Shown one piece after another: positions 7,907-24,815 of a stretch of DNA of 33,568 nt. The notes under the pieces are model-generated. The model ran no database searches and was not told the DNA's origin. It saw only the letters and a program-made list of their open reading frames with translations. Every line of letters begins with the position of its first letter. The stretch's first letter is position 1. The position numbers and the translations under genes are program-made. The stretch is from a plasmid, in assembly GCF_988242995.1 (NCBI RefSeq), contig NZ_OZ547045.1, one strand, 5' to 3'.

Positions 7907-8640
7907 CTACCGAAAAGCGTCACCATCAGATGCACCAAAAGCGTCTTTATCCGAGCCACCAAAGGCATCAGTCATACCGGCATCTTTTGGTTTTTCTTCA
8001 CCAACAGCAGCATCTACCGGCACAGCATCAATAGCAGCATCAACACTTTCTATATCAGTGGAACCATCATCGGCTTTCAGAGCAGGGATTACGGGTTTTG
8101 ATTGCCCTATTTGAGCAACCACCTTCGAAACATAACCGTTTGTAAATCCGGCGGTTAATGAACCCGTATTATAGCAAGACAATGCGTGTCTCAAAGCTGA
8201 CTGCCCCGGCGCATATTCCTTTGTTGCGAGCTGGTAGCAGTAGTTAAGTACCGTTTGTGCAGCTTCAAGATTTTTACAGCCATTAAACAGGTCAGCGGCT
8301 GAAACATTCAATTTTGAGAAATTCGCAGAGTTGATTTGCCCTAAACCTACGTCAAAGTTATAACCATGAGCCGTTAACCATTCGGTCGTTTTCACAGCCT
8401 CATCAAGTGATCGCGGTTGTTTAGCTAGCGGTGATTTCGTACCTTCAGGAACGTTAACGTTTATCGCGTATGGGTTGTTGCGCGATTCATGGCTAACCAA
8501 GTAACCAACAGTTAATGGGTGTACTTCTGGCGCACAACGTTTCGCCAACGCCATAACTGGCGCAGACAGCTCCGCAGTTGCGGGCGTGGCACCCATAAGA
8601 CCAGCAATTAACAGTGGGAAAAGGCTAACAACCTGCTTCA
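7907..8640 (-). CDS. virB1: VirB1-family lytic transglycosylase with C-terminal DAFG-repeat tail
   Basis: Signal peptide MKQVVSLFPLLIAGLMGATPATA, SLT-like core (ESR.NPYA...GLGQIN), start taken at ATG 8640 with AAGGA RBS; ORF track extends further upstream. Confidence 0.85.
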
Positions 8641-15133: not shown

Positions 15134-15245
15134 CGCCTCAGAACCCCGTAGAGCCATTCAATCAGAAAAAAGCGGCCTCATGTACAGCTCAACCAAAATA
15201 GCCGCTTACAGAGCCATACAGCGCGTATATAACCAATATCGCCCG

Positions 15246-15690
15246 GCGGCACCGGCGCTAACGTGCCTGTAGGGGCGCTGGCCGCGCTGCGGCCATCCCC
15301 CCAACACCCGGATAAATCGCGCCCGGCCCGTCGCTACGCGCCAGCCCGCCCGCTCAACCGGGCCGTTGTGACGGGCCACTGTTCCGGCAGCGGCATCGTG
15401 TGACAGCCCGCTAAAACCGGCTTTGCAGGGAGGGGGTGGGCGCGTCTCCCGGTTTGATCCCGCAAGGCCCGGCAATTTGACCACGTCGCCCAGGTTGAGA
15501 TCGGCGCAGTTGCCTTTTATTTGTCGGCATCGGCGCTAAATTTAAGTAAATTTATCGTACTATATAATGATACTTAAAGTTGACTTTTGAGGGGGAAAAG
15601 CCTATACTTTATTTACGGTTAGCAATGGTGCTGACCGACCCGGAACCAGTGGCGGCAACCGCTCCGGGGAACTTGCGAAGGGGGCAAGAA
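15246..15690. repeat. CUP-like GC-rich repeat, copy A (5'-truncated; lacks the first ~198 bp of copies B and C)
   Basis: Near-identical to 18515..18959 and 20672..21113. Confidence 0.85.
15580..15636 (+). promoter_or_regulatory. Cassette promoter P1 (TTGACT-17-TATACT) with leader hairpin GGTTAGCAATGGTGCTGACC
   Basis: -35 at 15580..15585, -10 at 15603..15608, inverted repeat at 15617..15636. Confidence 0.7.
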
Positions 15691-15960: not shown

Positions 15961-15970
15961 ATGTTTATGC

Positions 15971-16048
15971 GGTCGGCAATGGTGCCGACCGGCCCGGAAT
16001 CAGCGGCGGCAACCGCTCCGGGCAAACTGCGAAGGTACAGAGGCTAAT
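15971..16048 (+). promoter_or_regulatory. Promoter-less copy of the cassette leader (both hairpins plus RBS) in the intercistronic gap
   Basis: GGTCGGCAATGGTGCCGACC (15971..15990), CCCGGAATCAGCGGCGGCAACCGCTCCGGG (15993..16022), CTGCGAAGG, then ATG 16049. Confidence 0.6.
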
Positions 16049-16264: not shown

Positions 16265-16341
16265 ACACTTTTAAAGCCCGTAAACCGGGCTTTTTTAGTC
16301 TTTAAAGTACAATTAAAAGTAAAAAATAATGATACCAATAG

Positions 16342-16399
16342 TTGACTTATGGAGGGTGAACACCTATACTTTATTCATCGGTTAGCAATAGTGCTGACC
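16342..16399 (+). promoter_or_regulatory. Cassette promoter P2 (TTGACT-17-TATACT) with leader hairpin
   Basis: -35 at 16342..16347, -10 at 16365..16370, GGTTAGCAATAGTGCTGACC at 16380..16399. Confidence 0.7.
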
Positions 16400-16453
16400 G
16401 GCCCGGAACCAGCGGCGGCAACCGCTCCGGGCAAACTGCGAAGGAGTAATATT

Positions 16454-17281
16454 ATGTTATCTAGCCGTTTTCGTTCTGCAAATATCCTGCGTTCTGACCG
16501 CCCTCTTAACGATGATCAAATCATGCGTTATGCCCCGTCTATCTTTGCAACTGAAGCGCATGAAAGCCGCTCTGACCGGTACGCTTACATTGCGACCAGC
16601 GAAGTGTTAAACGGTTTGCGTGATAACGGTTTTCATCCGTTTATGGTTTGTCAGACTCGCGTTCGCAACCTGGATAAGCGCGAACACACCAAGCACATGA
16701 TCCGTCTGCGTCATGCCGGGCAAATTAACGGTACAGAAGCGAAGGAAATCATTTTGCTTAACTCGCACGATGGCAGCAGCAGCTATCAAATGCTGGCCGG
16801 TGTATTCCGTTTCGTTTGCCATAACGGTTTAGTGTGTGGTGATACGGTAGCGGATATTCGTATTCCCCATAAAGGCGATGTTACCGAGCGCGTTATTGAA
16901 GGGGCATTTGAGGTGCTGGATCAGTTTGATATGGTTGAAAGCCATATGGAATCTATGAAGTCTGTAACGCTGGATGCGCTGGAGAAGCGTATTTTTGCAG
17001 AAGCGGCGTTAGCACTGCGTTATGACGAACAAAAAGACGGCCCCGCACCAATCGCCGCTAGCCAGCTCCTTGAGGCGCGCCGTTTTGAAGATCGCAAAGA
17101 TGATTTATGGACAACGTTTAACCGCGTACAGGAAAACATTATCCGTGGTGGTTTGAGCGCCAGAACCAAACAGGGGAAATCAACCCGTACCCGCGCCGTA
17201 ACTGGTATGGATAAAGATACGTCTTTAAACCGCGCTTTATGGATTCTCAGCGAGCGCATGAATGAAATTAAAGCCGCTTAA
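16454..17281 (+). CDS. Conserved plasmid leading-region protein, possibly DUF932-type (family name uncertain)
   Basis: 275 aa; ATG after the conserved leader; located immediately upstream of ssb. Confidence 0.6.
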
Positions 17282-17289
17282 TGGCAAAT

Positions 17290-17315
17290 GCCCCGCTTAC
17301 CGGCGGGGCTTTTAT
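17290..17315 (+). terminator. Intrinsic terminator / attenuator between the upstream gene and ssb
   Basis: GCCCCGCttaccgGCGGGGC hairpin followed by TTTTAT. Confidence 0.55.
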
Positions 17316-17337
17316 CAACCCGAAAAAGGTGATTATC

Positions 17338-17838
17338 ATGGCTTCAAGAGGTGTTAATAAAGTAATTCTGGTCGGCAATTTAGGCCAAGATCCTGAAGTG
17401 CGTTATATGCCGAACGGCGGCGCGGTTGCCAACATTACGCTAGCCACGTCAGAAAGCTGGCGCGACAAGCAGACCGGCGAAATGAAAGAACAAACGGAAT
17501 GGCATCGCGTTGTATTATTCGGCAAGCTGGCAGAGGTCGCCGGGGAATATCTGCGCAAGGGTTCGCAGGTGTACATTGAGGGCCAGCTCAGAACACGTAA
17601 ATGGACAGATCAAGCTGGCGTGGACAAGTACACTACAGAGGTTGTCGTTAACGTTGGCGGCACTATGCAGATGTTAGGCGGTCGCCAGCAAAACGGCTCT
17701 CAGCCAGGTAATAATGAATGGGGCCAGTCGCAGCAGCCGCAAGGCGGCCAGCAGTTCAGCGGCCAGCCACAGAACACCGGCGCAGCGCCAGCGGCAGGAA
17801 ATGAGCCGCCTCCTTTTGATGATGATATTCCGTTTTAG
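17338..17838 (+). CDS. ssb: Single-stranded DNA-binding protein
   Basis: 166 aa; OB-fold N-terminus ([43 protein letters not shown]), Gly/Gln-rich linker, acidic C-terminal tail DDDIPF. Confidence 0.95.
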
Positions 17839-17961
17839 CCCTGATAAATATTTAAATGTAAATTTATTTACAGATTTATCTAAATAAATAACCGTTTTAG
17901 AGTTAACCTTCTGTAATTATTGATTAAATCGGCCCGTTTTCGGGCCGTAATGAGGTAAAAA

Positions 17962-18264
17962 ATGGCAGTAGAACGCATTTCCCCTGAAGAATGGCAGCGC
18001 ATCGCACCGGCATTGCGTACATGCAGCCAGGTAACGATCGATATGGCTTATGCCGTACTGGTTGATGGCCGTAAACAAGTAGATGTGGCGTCAGAGTTTG
18101 ACCGGTCAAAGCAAACGGTCAATGCGGCTATCAGGCGCGTTACTGCAATTTTTAACGAGGTTATCCCGGAAGATGAGCAGTTAGAATTTGTACAAGTCTG
18201 GTTGCCGCCAGAGCTGGCGAAGCAGGTAAAAGAAATGGCTAAACCGTATCAGAATAAAAAATAA
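17962..18264 (+). CDS. Small HTH transcriptional repressor, KorA/TrfB-like (possible ArdK-type regulator of the cassette promoters)
   Basis: 100 aa; AYAVLVDGRKQVDVASEFDRSKQTVNAAIRRV resembles the KorA HTH region (from memory). Confidence 0.5.
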   Translation: MAVERISPEEWQRIAPALRTCSQVTIDMAYAVLVDGRKQVDVASEFDRSKQTVNAAIRRVTAIFNEVIPEDEQLEFVQVWLPPELAKQVKEMAKPYQNKK

Positions 18265-18316
18265 CAGGAGTTATCGACATGTGTGAGTACGGATTTAAAA
18301 ACTAACTGAAAAAAAT

Positions 18317-18959
18317 CACTTATGGCGTTCCCTGCGGGGCGGGCTTTCGTGCTGCGCATCGAGCCAGGCAAGCTGTCTCGCCCCTTCGGGCTTCAATCCC
18401 TAACGCCTCCGGGCTGTCGCCCTCCGCGCTCCGCTTGACCCCCACGCCCTGCGCCGGACTTGCCCCGCCTACGGCGGCCCCGCCCCTCCGGGGTGGCTTC
18501 GCCATCCTCTGCCAGCGGCACCGGCGCTAACGTGCCTGTAGGGGCGCTGGCCGCGCTGCGGCCATCCCCCCAACACCCGGATAAATCGCGCCCGGCCCGT
18601 CGCTACGCGCCAGCCCGCCCGCTCAACCGGGCCGTTGTGACGGGCCACTGTTCCGGCAGCGGCATCGTGTGACAGCCCGCTAAAACCGGCTTTGCAGGGA
18701 GGGGGTGGGCGCGTCTCCCGGTTTGATCCCGCAAGGCCCGGCAATTTGACCACGTCGCCCAGGTTGAGATCGGCGCAGTTGCCTTTTATTTGTCGGCATC
18801 GGCGCTAAATTTAAGTAAATTTATCGTACTATATAATGATACTTAAAGTTGACTTTTGAGGGGGAAAAGCCTATACTTTATTTATCGGTTAGCAATGGTG
18901 CTGACCGACCCGGAACCAGCGGCGGCAACCGCTCCGGGCAATCTGCGAAGGTGGGAATT
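18317..18959. repeat. CUP-like repeat, full copy B (GC-rich body ~530 bp plus promoter/leader)
   Basis: Near-identical to 20474..21113. Confidence 0.9.
18849..18906 (+). promoter_or_regulatory. Cassette promoter P3 (TTGACT-17-TATACT) with leader hairpin
   Basis: -35 at 18849..18854, -10 at 18872..18877, inverted repeat at 18887..18906. Confidence 0.7.
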
Positions 18960-19268: not shown

Positions 19269-19351
19269 TTGACAGGGGGCTATTGCCCCCTACAACCAAA
19301 ACGGGCGGCGGCAACCGCCACTATTTAAACAATCTGCGAAGGATATAGATT

Positions 19352-19774
19352 ATGAGCGCATACGTGGTATCTGATAAATCCATTTCTACTATCGTTAAAA
19401 CTCTGGTTATTGCCGGTACACTTCAACCTGTCGAAGCTGTTTCTTTTGGTCAGATGATGCTTAATCTGAATACTCATTCCGTTAATATTCGCTATCAAGA
19501 AAACAGCCCGGCGCACCCTTTTGAATACAGCGACCCGGAATTAAATATCCATGACCCCAAAACTCAAATGCAGGTGATTGTCTGTATTGATGAATATGAA
19601 TATCAGTCCTGCGAGTTTGCCGAATACTATGAAACGATGGTGCATACAGTCCTAAAAGCCATCAAATCAGCGCTTATGCAGGCTTACACGGATATGTTGC
19701 CTAACCCATCGCAATGGAAAGAAAAAAAGTCCTATGACTTGCCAGGCTACTCAGAAGCTGAATGGGGTTTATGA
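19352..19774 (+). CDS. Hypothetical protein
   Basis: 140 aa; preceded by a partial leader (GGCGGCGGCAACCGCC ... CTGCGAAGG); followed by tandem hairpin terminator. Confidence 0.6.
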   Translation: MSAYVVSDKSISTIVKTLVIAGTLQPVEAVSFGQMMLNLNTHSVNIRYQENSPAHPFEYSDPELNIHDPKTQMQVIVCIDEYEYQSCEFAEYYETMVHTVLKAIKSALMQAYTDMLPNPSQWKEKKSYDLPGYSEAEWGL

Positions 19775-19845: not shown

Positions 19846-20005
19846 GCTTACTTATGGCGTTCCCTGCGGGCCGGGCTTTCGTGCTGCGCATCGAGCCAGG
19901 CAAGCTGTCTCGCCCCTTCGGGCTTCAATCCCTAACGCCTCCGGGCTTTCGCCCTCCGCGCTCCGCTTGGCCTCCGGGCTTTCGCCCTCCGCGCTTTGCT
20001 TGGCC
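19846..20005. repeat. CUP-like repeat fragment D (left arm only) with an internal 33-bp tandem duplication
   Basis: Matches the left ~125 bp of copies B and C; CCTCCGGGCTTTCGCCCTCCGCGCT(C/T)(C/T)GCTTGG duplicated at 19939..19971 and 19972..20004. Confidence 0.8.
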
Positions 20006-20473: not shown

Positions 20474-21113
20474 TACTTAGGGCGTTCCCTGCGGGCCGGG
20501 CTTTCGTGCTGCGCATCGAGCCAGGCAAGCTGTCTCGCCCCTTCGGGCTTCAATCCCTAACGCCTCCGGGCTTCGCCCTCCGCGCTCCGCTTGGCCCCCA
20601 CGCCCTGCGCCGGACTTGCCCCGCCTACGGCGGCCCCGCCCCTCCGGGGTGGCTTCGCCATCCTCTGCCAGCGGCACCGGCGCTAACGTGCCTGTAGGGG
20701 CGCTGGCCGCGCTGCGGCCATCCCCCCAACACCCGGATAAATCGCGCCCGGCCCGTCGCTACGCGCCAGCCCGCCCGCTCAACCGGGCCGTTGTGACGGG
20801 CCACTGTTCCGGCAGCGGCATCGTGTGACAGCCCGCTAAAACCGGCTTTGCAGGGAGGGGGGGGGCGCGTCTCCCGGTTTGATCCCGCAAGGCCCGGCAA
20901 TTTGACCACGTCGCCCAGGTTGAGATCGGCGCAATTGCCTTTTATTTGTCGGCATCGGCGCTAAATTTAAGTAAATTTACCGTACTATATAATGATACTT
21001 AAAGTTGACTTTTTAGGGGGGAAAATCTATACTTTATTTACGGTTAGCAATGGTGCTGACCGACCCGGAACCAGCGGCGGCAACCGCTCCGGGTAATCTG
21101 CGAAGGAAAATGT
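20474..21113. repeat. CUP-like repeat, full copy C
   Basis: Near-identical to copy B over about 640 bp. Confidence 0.9.
21005..21061 (+). promoter_or_regulatory. Cassette promoter P4 (TTGACT-17-TATACT) with leader hairpin
   Basis: -35 at 21005..21010, -10 at 21028..21033, inverted repeat at 21042..21061. Confidence 0.7.
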
Positions 21114-21395
21114 ATGAATACGACCCTTTTTGTTTTAATCCTTGCCGTAGCTGGCGCGTTGTATCTGCCCTGGCGACTTGTGCGCGATGGTTACAAAGAG
21201 CTTGTACAGATGTGTCTGTTTTGCTCCTGTATCGTCACGCTGGCCGCTGTATATGCCGTGTTGGTCAATCTCAATAACCCACACCCGTTTATGCCTATGT
21301 TTATCGCGGTAACGGCGTTCGGTGCGGTATTTGTGGCTGATTGCGCTTTATCTCTCTGGCTCTATCAGCGTAAAGCTAAGACGGCTAACCACTAA
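21114..21395 (+). CDS. Hypothetical small membrane protein
   Basis: 93 aa with three hydrophobic segments; an overlapping alternative frame from ATG 21110 looks non-protein-like. Confidence 0.55.
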   Translation: MNTTLFVLILAVAGALYLPWRLVRDGYKELVQMCLFCSCIVTLAAVYAVLVNLNNPHPFMPMFIAVTAFGAVFVADCALSLWLYQRKAKTANH

Positions 21396-21405
21396 CCACT
21401 AACTA

Positions 21406-21428
21406 AACCGCCCTGCGGGGCGGTTTTT
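21406..21428 (+). terminator. Rho-independent terminator
   Basis: CCGCCCtgcgGGGCGG hairpin followed by T5. Confidence 0.65.
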
Positions 21429-21449: not shown

Positions 21450-21692
21450 ATGGGAAACATCATTTTGATGGCCGAGAAGCTAAAAGGCGCGGTTTCCGAT
21501 GAATATGAAGTGTATGAATTTGAGGGCATGGATGATTTGATCCGGTTTCGTAAGAAATACCCGGAACAAATGAAGTATGAATATTCTTACTGTCTATCTG
21601 GCGGTACGAAAGATTTTCACCATATTGCGCTCGTCGAAGCTGACCATTTTAAGCAGTTCAAAAAGCAGGTTGACCAGTACCAGGCTCGATAA
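21450..21692 (+). CDS. Hypothetical small protein
   Basis: 80 aa, hydrophilic; no motif recognised. Confidence 0.5.
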   Translation: MGNIILMAEKLKGAVSDEYEVYEFEGMDDLIRFRKKYPEQMKYEYSYCLSGGTKDFHHIALVEADHFKQFKKQVDQYQAR

Positions 21693-21851: not shown

Positions 21852-22007
21852 ATGAAAAAATTCATTGGCAACCGTAACGGCAAGGCGGTTTTTCAGGAAG
21901 GTGATCGTGAGTTGGTAGCCGCTTACCAGATGAAATCCTCCCCGATTCCGGTAACGCCACGCAAGCTGAAAGCTGAAATGGATGCTATCGCCGCTACAGC
22001 CCGATAA
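21852..22007 (+). CDS. Hypothetical small protein
   Basis: 51 aa; ATG after GCGAAGGAG RBS of the shortened leader. Confidence 0.45.
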   Translation: MKKFIGNRNGKAVFQEGDRELVAAYQMKSSPIPVTPRKLKAEMDAIAATAR

Positions 22008-22082
22008 TCATTCACCCGCGCCGTTGGCGCGGGTAACTCTCACAGCGGCGGCAACCGCTTTTTTATGCGAAGGAGCAACGCG

Positions 22083-22265
22083 ATGTATCTATCTTTGATG
22101 GAACAAGCACGACAGGCAGAGGAATTGCGCGACTGGAAAACCGCCGCGCAACTCTACACCCAGGCGATGGCCGTTAGTCCAAAAGCCAGAACTATGCGCC
22201 AGCGCCGCGAAAGGCTGTATCTGCAACAGCGCATTGAGTTTTGCGAGCGTAATTCGAGAATGTAA
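22083..22265 (+). CDS. Hypothetical small protein
   Basis: 60 aa; preceded by AGCGGCGGCAACCGCT hairpin, T6 and GCGAAGGAG. Confidence 0.45.
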   Translation: MYLSLMEQARQAEELRDWKTAAQLYTQAMAVSPKARTMRQRRERLYLQQRIEFCERNSRM

Positions 22266-23287: not shown

Positions 23288-23656
23288 TCAGTGCAGCAGG
23301 AACGTTATAGCCGCCGCGCCGAGCGCTCCACCAACAAAGGAACAGACAACCGTGATAATCAGTATCTGCCTGATAAGCGCTTTCGAAAACCCTGTATGCG
23401 CCCCGGCCAGACGTTCAAAAAATTGTTCGCTAACCTTCTGCTCCTTCTTCAGAGTGTTGACCAGCTCGCGCTGGCTTGCGATCACTTCTGTTTTCGCAGT
23501 CTCCGATGATTTTGCTATCGCGTCGGAGGCTTTATCCAGCCGTTCTATTGCTTCGGTAACGCTTACACTTACACTTTCCAGTTTTGAGGTGATTTCTTTA
23601 GCATCGCCTAAAAACCAGTCCATCAGGACATCTAATTTATCAGGTTGCTTTTCCAT
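23288..23656 (-). CDS. Hypothetical coiled-coil protein with C-terminal TM anchor (third gene of the stb-like operon)
   Basis: 122 aa; helical N-terminal part, hydrophobic C-terminus. Confidence 0.55.
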   Translation of the reverse strand: MEKQPDKLDVLMDWFLGDAKEITSKLESVSVSVTEAIERLDKASDAIAKSSETAKTEVIASQRELVNTLKKEQKVSEQFFERLAGAHTGFSKALIRQILIITVVCSFVGGALGAAAITFLLH

Positions 23657-24380: not shown

Positions 24381-24815
24381 TTAGAAACCTTTCTTATTAC
24401 CTACGCTACCTTTGAATGAGGTTGCGACTTTCTTTGCCTCATCACCAATTTTTTTAAAATCGGTATCGGATAAAAATTCTTTGTTCCCGCCCATATCCTC
24501 AACTAATTTTTCTGGTTCTGGATTGTGCAATCCAGTTTCCACCGGTTCCGCTTTCTCCTGCTCTTTTGGATTGTGCAATCCAGTATTTACCGTACTTTCT
24601 GGATTGTGCAATCCACCTTTTTTGCGTTTCAATCTTGCCCGGTACAAGGCCATATCTAACGCTTTCACAGTCACAGAAAAGCTGTATTCACTATCAAGAA
24701 GTTGAGCAATTTCTTGCCTACTAATACCCTTGTCTAACAAACCTTCAATCTCATCAAGACGCGCTCTTACAGCCGCAGCGAGATTGCGAGGTTCCAGTAA
24801 AAGGTCTTTTTTCAT
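24381..24815 (-). CDS. stbA: StbA-like DNA-binding protein with N-terminal HTH and C-terminal GLHNP repeats
   Basis: 144 aa; first gene of the operon divergent from oriT; three in-frame GLHNP repeats encoded by palindromic 14-mers. Confidence 0.5.
   Translation of the reverse strand: MKKDLLLEPRNLAAAVRARLDEIEGLLDKGISRQEIAQLLDSEYSFSVTVKALDMALYRARLKRKKGGLHNPESTVNTGLHNPKEQEKAEPVETGLHNPEPEKLVEDMGGNKEFLSDTDFKKIGDEAKKVATSFKGSVGNKKGF
24518..24616. repeat. Three intragenic copies of the operator-like palindrome (C)TGGATTGTGCAATCCA(G)
   Basis: Copies at 24518..24535, 24566..24583 and 24599..24616; spacings 48 and 33 bp. Confidence 0.85.

Follow-up and report, generated by a model that had tools for sequence, protein, structure and literature searches.

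A GC-rich hairpin followed by a short U-tract was located at positions 17290-17315 of the window, the whole stretch of 33,568 nucleotides that was analysed. It lies between a DUF932 gene and ssb. With moderate confidence we regard it as the hairpin that closes the DUF932 cistron at its 3' end and works as a terminator of the intrinsic (Rho-independent) type, constitutive but leaky, inside a transcription unit of the CUP (conserved upstream repeat) regulon. As such it adds one more, unremarkable example to a familiar class, that of partial terminators or 3' hairpins within operons. The preliminary description of this DNA had reported a GC hairpin with a U-tract in the 56-nt gap before ssb, and both its coordinates and its description proved correct.

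The window belongs to an IncN-type conjugative plasmid. The best match, with 98.8% identity, was the Salmonella plasmid pCFSAN004085 (CP074311.1), which is typed as IncN/MOBF/MPF_T. The CUP regulon of the leading region spans about 14.7-22.3 kb. With a consensus scan and an analysis of repeat families the promoter TTGACT-17-TATACT was found in five copies, at 15580, 16342, 18849, 21005 and 21774. The CUP organisation of IncN plasmids has been described before (PMC5371602; PMC6289460), and CUP promoters are repressed by ArdK (PMC6289460; PMC5371602). Judged by position as in R388, oriT is presumed to lie between stbA (24381-24815) and the traK-like gene (25291). Following this presumed position, the minus strand would be the T-strand and also the template for the leading-region genes. 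The unit considered here has the order CUP promoter (16342), DUF932, ssb and ardK, with ardK as the last gene. Its features are the following:

16342..16370, plus strand: CUP-type sigma-70 promoter TTGACT-17-TATACT, 10/12 consensus match
16379..16432, plus strand: leader of the transcript, composed of the hairpins hp1 and hp2
16379-16400, plus strand: hp1, CGGTTAGCA-ATAG-TGCTGACCG, starting about 2 nt past the predicted transcription start
16401-16432, plus strand: hp2, with the invariant core GCGGCGGCAACCGC at 16412-16425
16454..17281, plus strand: DUF932 gene, 275 aa (Pfam DUF932 2e-55; 55% identical to F-plasmid YubP/UPF0380)
17279-17281, plus strand: DUF932 stop codon TAA
17282-17337, plus strand: gap of 56 nt between DUF932 and ssb
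17290..17309, plus strand: hairpin GCCCCGC(t)-tacc-(g)GCGGGGC, marking the 3' end of DUF932
17310..17315, plus strand: short U-tract TTTTAT, invariant in six IncN sequences
17326-17333, plus strand: ssb ribosome-binding site AAGGTGAT, with the ssb ATG at 17338
17338..17838, plus strand: ssb, 166 aa (Pfam SSB 1e-40)
17930..17947, plus strand: second intercistronic hairpin, CGGCCC-N6-GGGCCG, without U-tract and abutting the ardK ribosome-binding site
17962..18264, plus strand: ardK, KorA/TrfB-family repressor (Pfam KORA/TrfB 3e-12; 43% identical to R388 ArdK)

The only strong promoter upstream of the hairpin is the CUP promoter at 16342-16370, and it most likely drives DUF932, ssb and ardK together. 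No usable sigma-70-like site for ssb or ardK was detected between 16900 and 17961 in a relaxed consensus scan (at least 8/12), a scan which does not amount to proof. The matches in this interval were a weak site at 16908, the sites at 17311, 17312 and 17333, and a promoter-like site at 17822, which sits in an AT-rich insertion specific to the window. For the sites at 17311, 17312 and 17333 the -10 element ends on or past the ssb start codon. TTATCA-16-TATCAT and a variant of it end at 17339, on the start codon itself (17338-17340), so that transcription from there would start downstream of the ssb ATG. For the relative L002, the consensus scan likewise gave no usable promoter for ssb or ardK. 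Hence, ssb and ardK most likely depend on read-through, and without it ardK would not be expressed. Co-directional genes are present on both sides with no promoter between them in the consensus scan, which is the setting of a partial terminator. The hairpin had been placed within one operon before, and this placement was confirmed insofar as it lies on the coding strand of what is most likely a single unit transcribed from 16342. It had been missed in that description that the gene of the CUP repressor, ardK, lies downstream of the hairpin.

The stem consists of eight pairs, seven G-C and one U-G, with a loop of four nucleotides in the consensus scan; overall, the loop of the hairpin 17290-17309 counts 4-6 nt. 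For the isolated hairpin a dG of -15.7 kcal/mol was calculated. Each G-C pair had a probability of at least 0.976, whether the hairpin was folded within a 150-nt context or in a segment that stops where it ends. The U-tract TTTTAT contains four contiguous T's and has T in 5/6 positions. Thus, the element has the anatomy of an intrinsic terminator, which calls for a GC-rich stem (about 5-14 bp; loop 3-8 nt) that is stable on its own and for a U-rich tract directly 3' of the stem. On an approximate d'Aubenton-Carafa-type scale, for which a formula from the literature was combined with ViennaRNA energies, the hairpin scored +21.6 (a positive value predicts a terminator) with a tail score of 3.45. 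The operon-end terminators of the leading region score 17-32 on the same approximate scale. Operon-end hairpins (about 16276, 19810, 21701) carry T6-7, and the internal hairpins of the leading region (17290, 21407) carry T4-5. The short U-tract predicts a weak-to-moderate terminator at 17290, not a strong one.

Hairpins of this class, defined by at least seven pairs, at least six of them G-C, a loop of 3-8 nt and at least four T's in the next 6 nt, are far from random in the window. Eight were counted on both strands, compared with 0.25 +/- 0.54 expected from 40 dinucleotide-preserving shuffles of the window. The remaining members on the plus strand (11127, 21407 and 21698) are likewise located 3' of genes. 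Among these, the hairpin at 21407-21424 is the other one built like that at 17290. A stop codon precedes it by 11 nt, its 7-bp stem is followed by a T4-5 tract, and the next ATG comes 25 nt on. Furthermore, the 76-nt gap region around the hairpin between DUF932 and ssb gave a folding z-score of -2.4.

The DUF932 stop codon TAA (17279-81) and the first stem base, G17290, are separated by 8 nt, and only 28 nt lie between the end of the hairpin and the ssb ATG. The stem is therefore within the distance of about 10-15 nt from a stop codon at which a terminator can be occluded by a ribosome. The operon-end terminators of the leading region also stand 5-8 nt past stop codons. The short distance may simply reflect compaction.

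The junction between DUF932 and ssb was covered by only 93 plasmid records. Six IncN sequences were aligned and yielded four loop variants (TTACCG, TTGACCT, TTGTTC and TTGATC). No change was seen in any of the six in the 14 bases of the stem, in the T-tract plus downstream flank (TTTTATCAACCC) or in the ribosome-binding site of ssb. Outside the loop, the sole change in the 56-nt gap was one base just 5' of the stem. The genes around the hairpin differ by about 10% at the DNA level among the IncN relatives. Together with this divergence, an invariant stem carrying a variable loop indicates selection on the helix, not on sequence content or coding frame. Judged from the alignment, hairpin and U-tract are under purifying selection on structure. 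Compensatory changes were not found within the stem, which is invariant in the six aligned sequences with their four loop variants. The second hairpin, between ssb and ardK (17930-17947), likewise combines an invariant stem with a variable loop. Homology with the ssb of unrelated trbM-ssb plasmids can be followed back to about 17323 (AAAAAGGTGATTATCATG), directly behind the hairpin and T-tract. Thus, the hairpin belongs to the DUF932 side of the junction.

This assignment was extended to homologues of the DUF932 gene. Seven plasmids with 55-97% amino acid identity were included, and also 80 genome loci, mostly beta- and gamma-proteobacterial integrative elements, with 61-66% identity. From 53 distinct sequences downstream of homologues with 55-66% amino acid identity the best local hairpin had a median dG of -18.5 kcal/mol; the control medians were -10.9 kcal/mol for shuffled segments and -12.3 kcal/mol for coding windows of the same loci. 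The hairpins begin at a median of 6 nt past the stop codon (interquartile range 3-9; 53 distinct sequences), and the 9-nt tails behind them contain 41% T, compared with a background of 21%. The following gene is usually co-directional, in most cases a ParB-like open reading frame of about 500-800 aa after a gap of 42-134 nt. Between DUF932 lineages the hairpin sequences are unrelated. A stop-proximal hairpin that recurs throughout the family in unrelated sequences points to an old, positionally conserved attribute of DUF932 genes. On the same comparison, the IncN hairpin is the enterobacterial form with a clean T-tract. A strong hairpin without T-tract follows DUF932 in the Pseudomonas plasmids L009 and L010. 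The synteny of DUF932, an intervening gene and a TrfB gene is kept in L009; in L010 the TrfB-related gene is located upstream of DUF932. For a widespread family of unknown function it is of some general interest that its genes on plasmids and in integrative elements are nearly always closed by a strong stop-proximal hairpin, even with a co-directional gene behind them.

Several other candidate functions were tried and rejected. In the window, the ATG at 17281 (overlapping the DUF932 stop codon as TAATG) shares the frame of ssb and could start an N-terminally extended SSB. In three relatives this start is out of frame by a 1-nt indel in the loop, no ribosome-binding site precedes the ATG, and distant homologues do not have it. 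A pseudoknot between loop and ribosome-binding site (UUACC with GGUGA) is not compatible with the loop variants TTGTTC and TTGATC, which are unable to pair. A bidirectional terminator was rejected, as the tail on the minus strand is ATTTGCC and there is no converging gene. Read-through of the stop codon stimulated by the hairpin would add just 20 residues ending in the ssb ribosome-binding site, and these show no conservation. Finally, a Frpo-type promoter or single-strand initiation site, which would need an imperfect hairpin of about 100-300 nt in the T-strand that reconstitutes -35/-10 boxes or a primosome site, was rejected for the element of 20 nt. The CUP itself was rejected as a Frpo-like promoter of single-stranded DNA, since no inverted copy of its promoter was found.

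The function that we propose for the hairpin can be outlined as follows. RNA polymerase starting at the CUP promoter (16342) would transcribe DUF932, and a fraction of the polymerases would terminate at 17290-17315. The 3' end of the terminated DUF932 mRNA would be protected by the hairpin, and the remaining polymerases would continue into ssb and ardK. Substantial read-through is expected from the short U-tract (U4AU). It is also expected from the ribosome finishing DUF932, which could occlude the 5' arm of a stem located 8 nt past the stop codon. The hairpin would then be leaky during translation of DUF932 and more efficient on untranslated transcripts. As net outcome, DUF932 would be made in excess of SSB and ArdK per transcription event. 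Since ArdK is the repressor of the CUP promoters, the hairpin would also lower the gain of the ArdK negative-feedback loop. The former suggestion that the hairpin determines how much of the upstream protein is made relative to SSB is thus retained as the most economical reading, based on the conservation of the stem, the single unit and the lack of an internal promoter.

An effect of this kind was observed in vivo by Li et al. (2016) for the lambda terminator tR2, where termination dropped from about 90% to below 10% with a stop codon 5 bp upstream of the terminator (PMC4824070). Full efficiency of tR2 needed more than 27 nt from the stop codon, and the repression was lost when translation was uncoupled (PMC4824070). 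For the IncN hairpin, generic occlusion by a ribosome terminating 8 nt upstream is the only conditional behaviour that the data suggest.

Besides the hairpin, a leader of about 55 nt was noticed, which is conserved upstream of most leading-region genes and is more unusual than the hairpin itself. Its core GCGGCGGCAACCGC is present seven times on the gene strand of the window's leading region and nine times in the whole window, compared with 0.36 expected. R388 has eight matches in total (1.5 expected), six of them on the gene strand of its leading region. In plasmids of Pseudomonas and Methylorubrum the core precedes DUF932 as well; the leader is common to these plasmids and to those of the IncN and IncW types. 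Within the outer stem of hp2, five pairs are changed on both sides in a compensatory manner, a number reached by 3/500 shuffles, and a compensatory variant of hp1 is located at 15970-15991. ssb and ardK have no such leader. No match to the leader was obtained in Rfam, either at gathering thresholds or at E<=10, and a literature search with the core sequence did not find it.

It is conceivable, at a very low probability, that the hairpin at 17290 is part of a structured RNA or single-stranded DNA architecture of the whole leading region, with a 3' GC hairpin for each cistron and a 5' leader on most of them. The leader could then serve as a cis-acting, put-like signal for processive antitermination or for the loading of factors. 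During zygotic induction, polymerases from CUP promoters or other promoters controlled by ArdK would ignore hairpins such as that at 17290, and other transcription would be stopped. The idea of antitermination has the co-occurrence of the leader with internal hairpins as its sole basis. Equally, the leader may be an ordinary 5' stabiliser of the mRNA or an operator.

Four further explanations have to be weighed against a leaky terminator. Rather unlikely, in our estimation, is a pure element of RNA stability or processing with negligible termination, which would either block 3' exonucleases on the DUF932 segment of the mRNA or shield the 5' end of a processed ssb-ardK mRNA. The main argument for it is provided by the hairpins without U-tract after DUF932 in the Pseudomonas plasmids L009 and L010, and the hairpin between ssb and ardK shows the same pattern of invariant stem and variable loop, also without U-tract. 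In view of these T-tract-less hairpins, the conserved function may be RNA stability instead of termination. The distance of 28 nt from the hairpin to the ssb ATG also resembles the 25-34 nt between the core of the leader hairpin and the start codons of other leading-region genes. Moreover, promoter strength and mRNA level are poorly correlated in R388 (r2 = 0.49), which its authors attributed to mRNA processing and decay (PMC3937220). However, the U-tract is the same in every IncN variant, the tails of the family hairpins are enriched in T (41% versus 21%), and the anatomy is that of a classical terminator. Partial termination and stabilisation can also coexist. Quite improbable is an efficient terminator of a monocistronic DUF932 transcript, with ssb and ardK transcribed from an unrecognised promoter and the hairpin as a relic of recombination at a module boundary. 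This would agree with the start of the ssb homology to unrelated plasmids directly 3' of hairpin and U-tract, with the positive terminator score, and with R388, where a 198-nt gap holds a separate, ArdK-regulated promoter for ssb. In the IncN plasmid, however, just 28 nt lead from the hairpin to the ssb ATG, and the promoter-like matches there end at 17339 on the start codon. The 3' part of DUF932 has no site of at least 8/12 except the weak one at 16908, and the gap including the ribosome-binding site is invariant in the relatives and has no -35/-10 pair. In addition, the arrangement of DUF932, hairpin, intervening gene and TrfB repressor recurs in the distant plasmids L008 and L009.

A DNA-level role is very unlikely. 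The hairpin would be extruded in the transferred strand, for priming or as a site for a structure-specific protein or recombination, or it would be a mere scar at a cassette boundary. The leading region does reach the recipient as single-stranded DNA, the complement of the hairpin folds as DNA too (-10.4 kcal/mol), and homology breakpoints coincide with the hairpin. Yet known single-strand initiation sites and Frpo-type promoters are far larger than a 7-bp hairpin, no inverted copy of the CUP promoter was found, the conserved T-tract is specific to the mRNA-sense strand, and T-rich tails recur across the family. Close to negligible, finally, is the probability of a regulated attenuator, in which the terminator would be switched by a leader peptide, a metabolite, a tRNA or a dedicated RNA-binding protein. 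This had been offered in the preliminary description as an alternative, and it is not supported. A terminator-like hairpin does lie upstream of ssb within an operon, and the nearby ribosome would give a generic dependence on translation. But the partition function gave a probability of 0.976-1.0 for the terminator stem in two contexts, with no competing antiterminator helix, and the upstream open reading frame is a DUF932 gene of 275 codons, not a leader peptide. Sequence and length of the loop vary freely, which argues against a loop recognised by a specific ligand or protein. The frame of the open reading frame from ATG 17281 is broken in relatives by the 1-nt indel in the loop. In Rfam the hairpin matched no family at gathering thresholds, nor any relevant one at E<=10. 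Since neither an antiterminator nor a sensor, two defining features of an attenuator, was found, the hairpin stands outside the families of regulated attenuators.

If the reading as a leaky terminator is true, the hairpin sets the yield of SSB, and above all of the ArdK repressor, per CUP transcript. It would thereby tune the steady-state repression and the overshoot after transfer of the whole IncN establishment regulon, to which anti-restriction and further leading-region genes belong. This would be of use in modelling plasmid establishment, as a quantitative detail of a known design. A literature search gave no RNA data for IncN plasmids of this type; recent transcriptome papers on leading regions do not include them and do not mention terminators.

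Partial terminators inside operons are well known from E. coli, for example the rplL-rpoB attenuator and the internal terminator of rpsU-dnaG-rpoD, and read-through was measured in both cases. As in these operons, a constitutive hairpin with U-tract between co-transcribed genes would lower the dose of the downstream genes in the IncN plasmid. In contrast to them, the downstream cargo includes the operon's own repressor. Intercistronic hairpins that stabilise mRNA are represented by the REP element in malE-malF and by the Rhodobacter puf operon. There, too, a stable GC hairpin lies just past the upstream cistron within an operon, and differential stability of the segments would be possible for DUF932 and ssb as well. 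Unlike these elements, the IncN hairpin has a conserved U-tract and is not a REP-type repeat, and each DUF932 lineage has a hairpin of its own.

With the trp and pyrBI attenuators the IncN hairpin shares a terminator hairpin and U-tract upstream of genes, and a predicted sensitivity to the position of the ribosome. It differs from them and from riboswitches by the lack of a leader peptide, of an antiterminator or anti-antiterminator fold and of an aptamer, and it is not located in a 5' leader. The distance of the stem from the stop codon, 8 nt, is comparable to the lambda tR2 series, in which the trailing ribosome left almost no termination with stems within about 5-10 nt (PMC4824070). However, tR2 was studied in an engineered reporter with a strong terminator, and occlusion in the IncN plasmid is deduced from the distance.

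The closest specific relative of the IncN hairpin is found in R388, a plasmid of the sister family IncW. Five promoters are repressed by ArdK of R388, one of them "P ssb, its own promoter", and transcription units were mapped by RT-qPCR (PMC3937220). Terminators were not mentioned in that study (PMC3937220). In the 51-nt gap between ssb and ardK of R388 we identified GGGCGGG-CTGGCCA-CCCGCCC followed by TTTTTT (NC_028464, 20610-20590, minus strand). Both plasmids carry ssb together with an ardK of the KorA/TrfB family, and the two ArdK proteins are 43% identical. In both, a hairpin with T-tract is placed between co-directional genes in a short gap without room for a promoter, and the repressor gene follows downstream. 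Hence, autoregulation of ArdK via Pssb in R388 requires read-through of the hairpin. The R388 hairpin differs in its location between ssb and ardK instead of upstream of ssb, in its longer T-tract (T6) and in its unrelated sequence, and the R388 ssb has its own promoter and leader. Judged from these two sequences, a terminator-like hairpin between the promoter and the gene of the autorepressor recurs in IncN and IncW plasmids.

The ATG at 17281 overlaps the stop codon of the DUF932 gene (TAATG), and the frame opened there passes through the hairpin at 17290 (17281-17338). In the window and in the relatives with a 56-nt gap this frame is in frame with ssb. In those with a 57-nt gap it is out of frame and closes shortly past the ssb start. 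The frame is not conserved and is therefore probably non-coding.

Two further intercistronic hairpins were located in the window:
21407-21424, ACCGCCC-TGCG-GGGCGGT followed by TTTTAA
17930-17947, CGGCCC-N6-GGGCCG, directly 5' of the ardK ribosome-binding site

The first has the same design as the hairpin between the DUF932 gene and ssb. Within the CUP operon starting at 21005, it begins 11 nt past the stop codon of the gene 21114-21395, and 25 nt separate its end from the ATG at 21450. The stem of the hairpin before ardK is unchanged among the IncN relatives, and its loop is variable (GTTTTC, ATTTTC, TTTACA or GTAACC). It has no U-tract, and a terminator was therefore ruled out.

Two differences from the relatives were detected next to these genes. 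A 53-nt AT-rich insertion lies directly 3' of the ssb stop codon (window 17839-17900), with the 9-bp direct repeat CCGTTTTAG on both sides (17830-17838 and 17892-17900). No relative in the comparison has this segment, not even the 98.8% identical Salmonella plasmid pCFSAN004085 (CP074311.1). It looks like a small insertion with target-site duplication. Downstream of ardK (18280-18306), only an 8-codon remnant is found, in which the ATG is joined to the last approximately 24 nt of a gene. This gene comprises 342 nt and is intact in CP074311.1 (positions 7974-8315 of locus L001). Judged by this comparison, the remnant is the result of an internal deletion in the window relative to its closest relative.

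Furthermore, most of the leading-region genes are preceded by a leader that is conserved and about 55 nt long. It was identified at the following positions:
15612-15662, 15966-16016, 16379-16432, 18886-18939, 19305-19318, 21041-21094 and 22045-22058, plus strand, leader in the window
18429-18442, 19512-19525, 21015-21028, 21987-22000, 22218-22231 and 23519-23532, minus strand, leader in the IncW plasmid R388 (L096)
1284 and 2452, leader in the Pseudomonas plasmid L009
2446, leader in the distant plasmid L008

The first part of the leader, hp1 (CGGTTAGCA-ATGG-TGCTGACCG), begins about 2 nt past the predicted CUP transcription start. The second part, hp2 (CCCGGAAcca-GCGG-CGGCAA-CCGC-t-CCGGG), is followed by CTGCGAAGGAG. 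Compensatory changes were found in the outer stem of hp2 and also in hp1. The core GCGGCGGCAACCGC is invariant in IncN, IncW, Pseudomonas and Methylorubrum plasmids, lies 25-34 nt upstream of an ATG and is present at intercistronic sites within operons as well as behind promoters. The leader is absent from ssb and ardK. Rfam holds no entry for it, and no paper with the core sequence was found in the literature.

In its long form CUP carries a GC-rich segment of approximately 400-500 bp 5' of the promoter, in which numerous imperfect inverted repeats and also spurious minus-strand ORFs of 94 aa occur:
15148-15542, 18318-18800, 19850-19975 and 20475-20967, GC-rich segments upstream of CUP promoters in the window

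The copy driving DUF932-ssb-ardK (16302-16444) is without this segment.

A hairpin after the DUF932 gene was also detected in integrative elements:
L007 3331-3380 and 19 other integrative-element loci (e.g. L015, L019, L025, L046, L060), GCGGCAGGGG...CCCTTGCCGC

Part of its loop, GCAGCAGC or GCAGCCAT, is the complement of GCTGCTGC or ATGGCTGC, located about 7 nt 3' of the stem. Three of these pairs vary on both sides together (17 cells of the alignment), and 97.5% of the cells are paired versus 34-66% when the pairing is slid. The pattern is suggestive of an H-type pseudoknot, or else of an alternative helix, located 6-9 nt past the stop codon.

A terminator-like hairpin is also present in R388:
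20590-20610, minus strand, GGGCGGG-CTGGCCA-CCCGCCC with TTTTTT

It is situated between ssb and ardK, in a gap of 51 nt, and is not mentioned in the paper on the R388 network (PMC3937220). For the ssb-ardK operon in which it lies, autoregulation by ArdK from Pssb was reported (PMC3937220).
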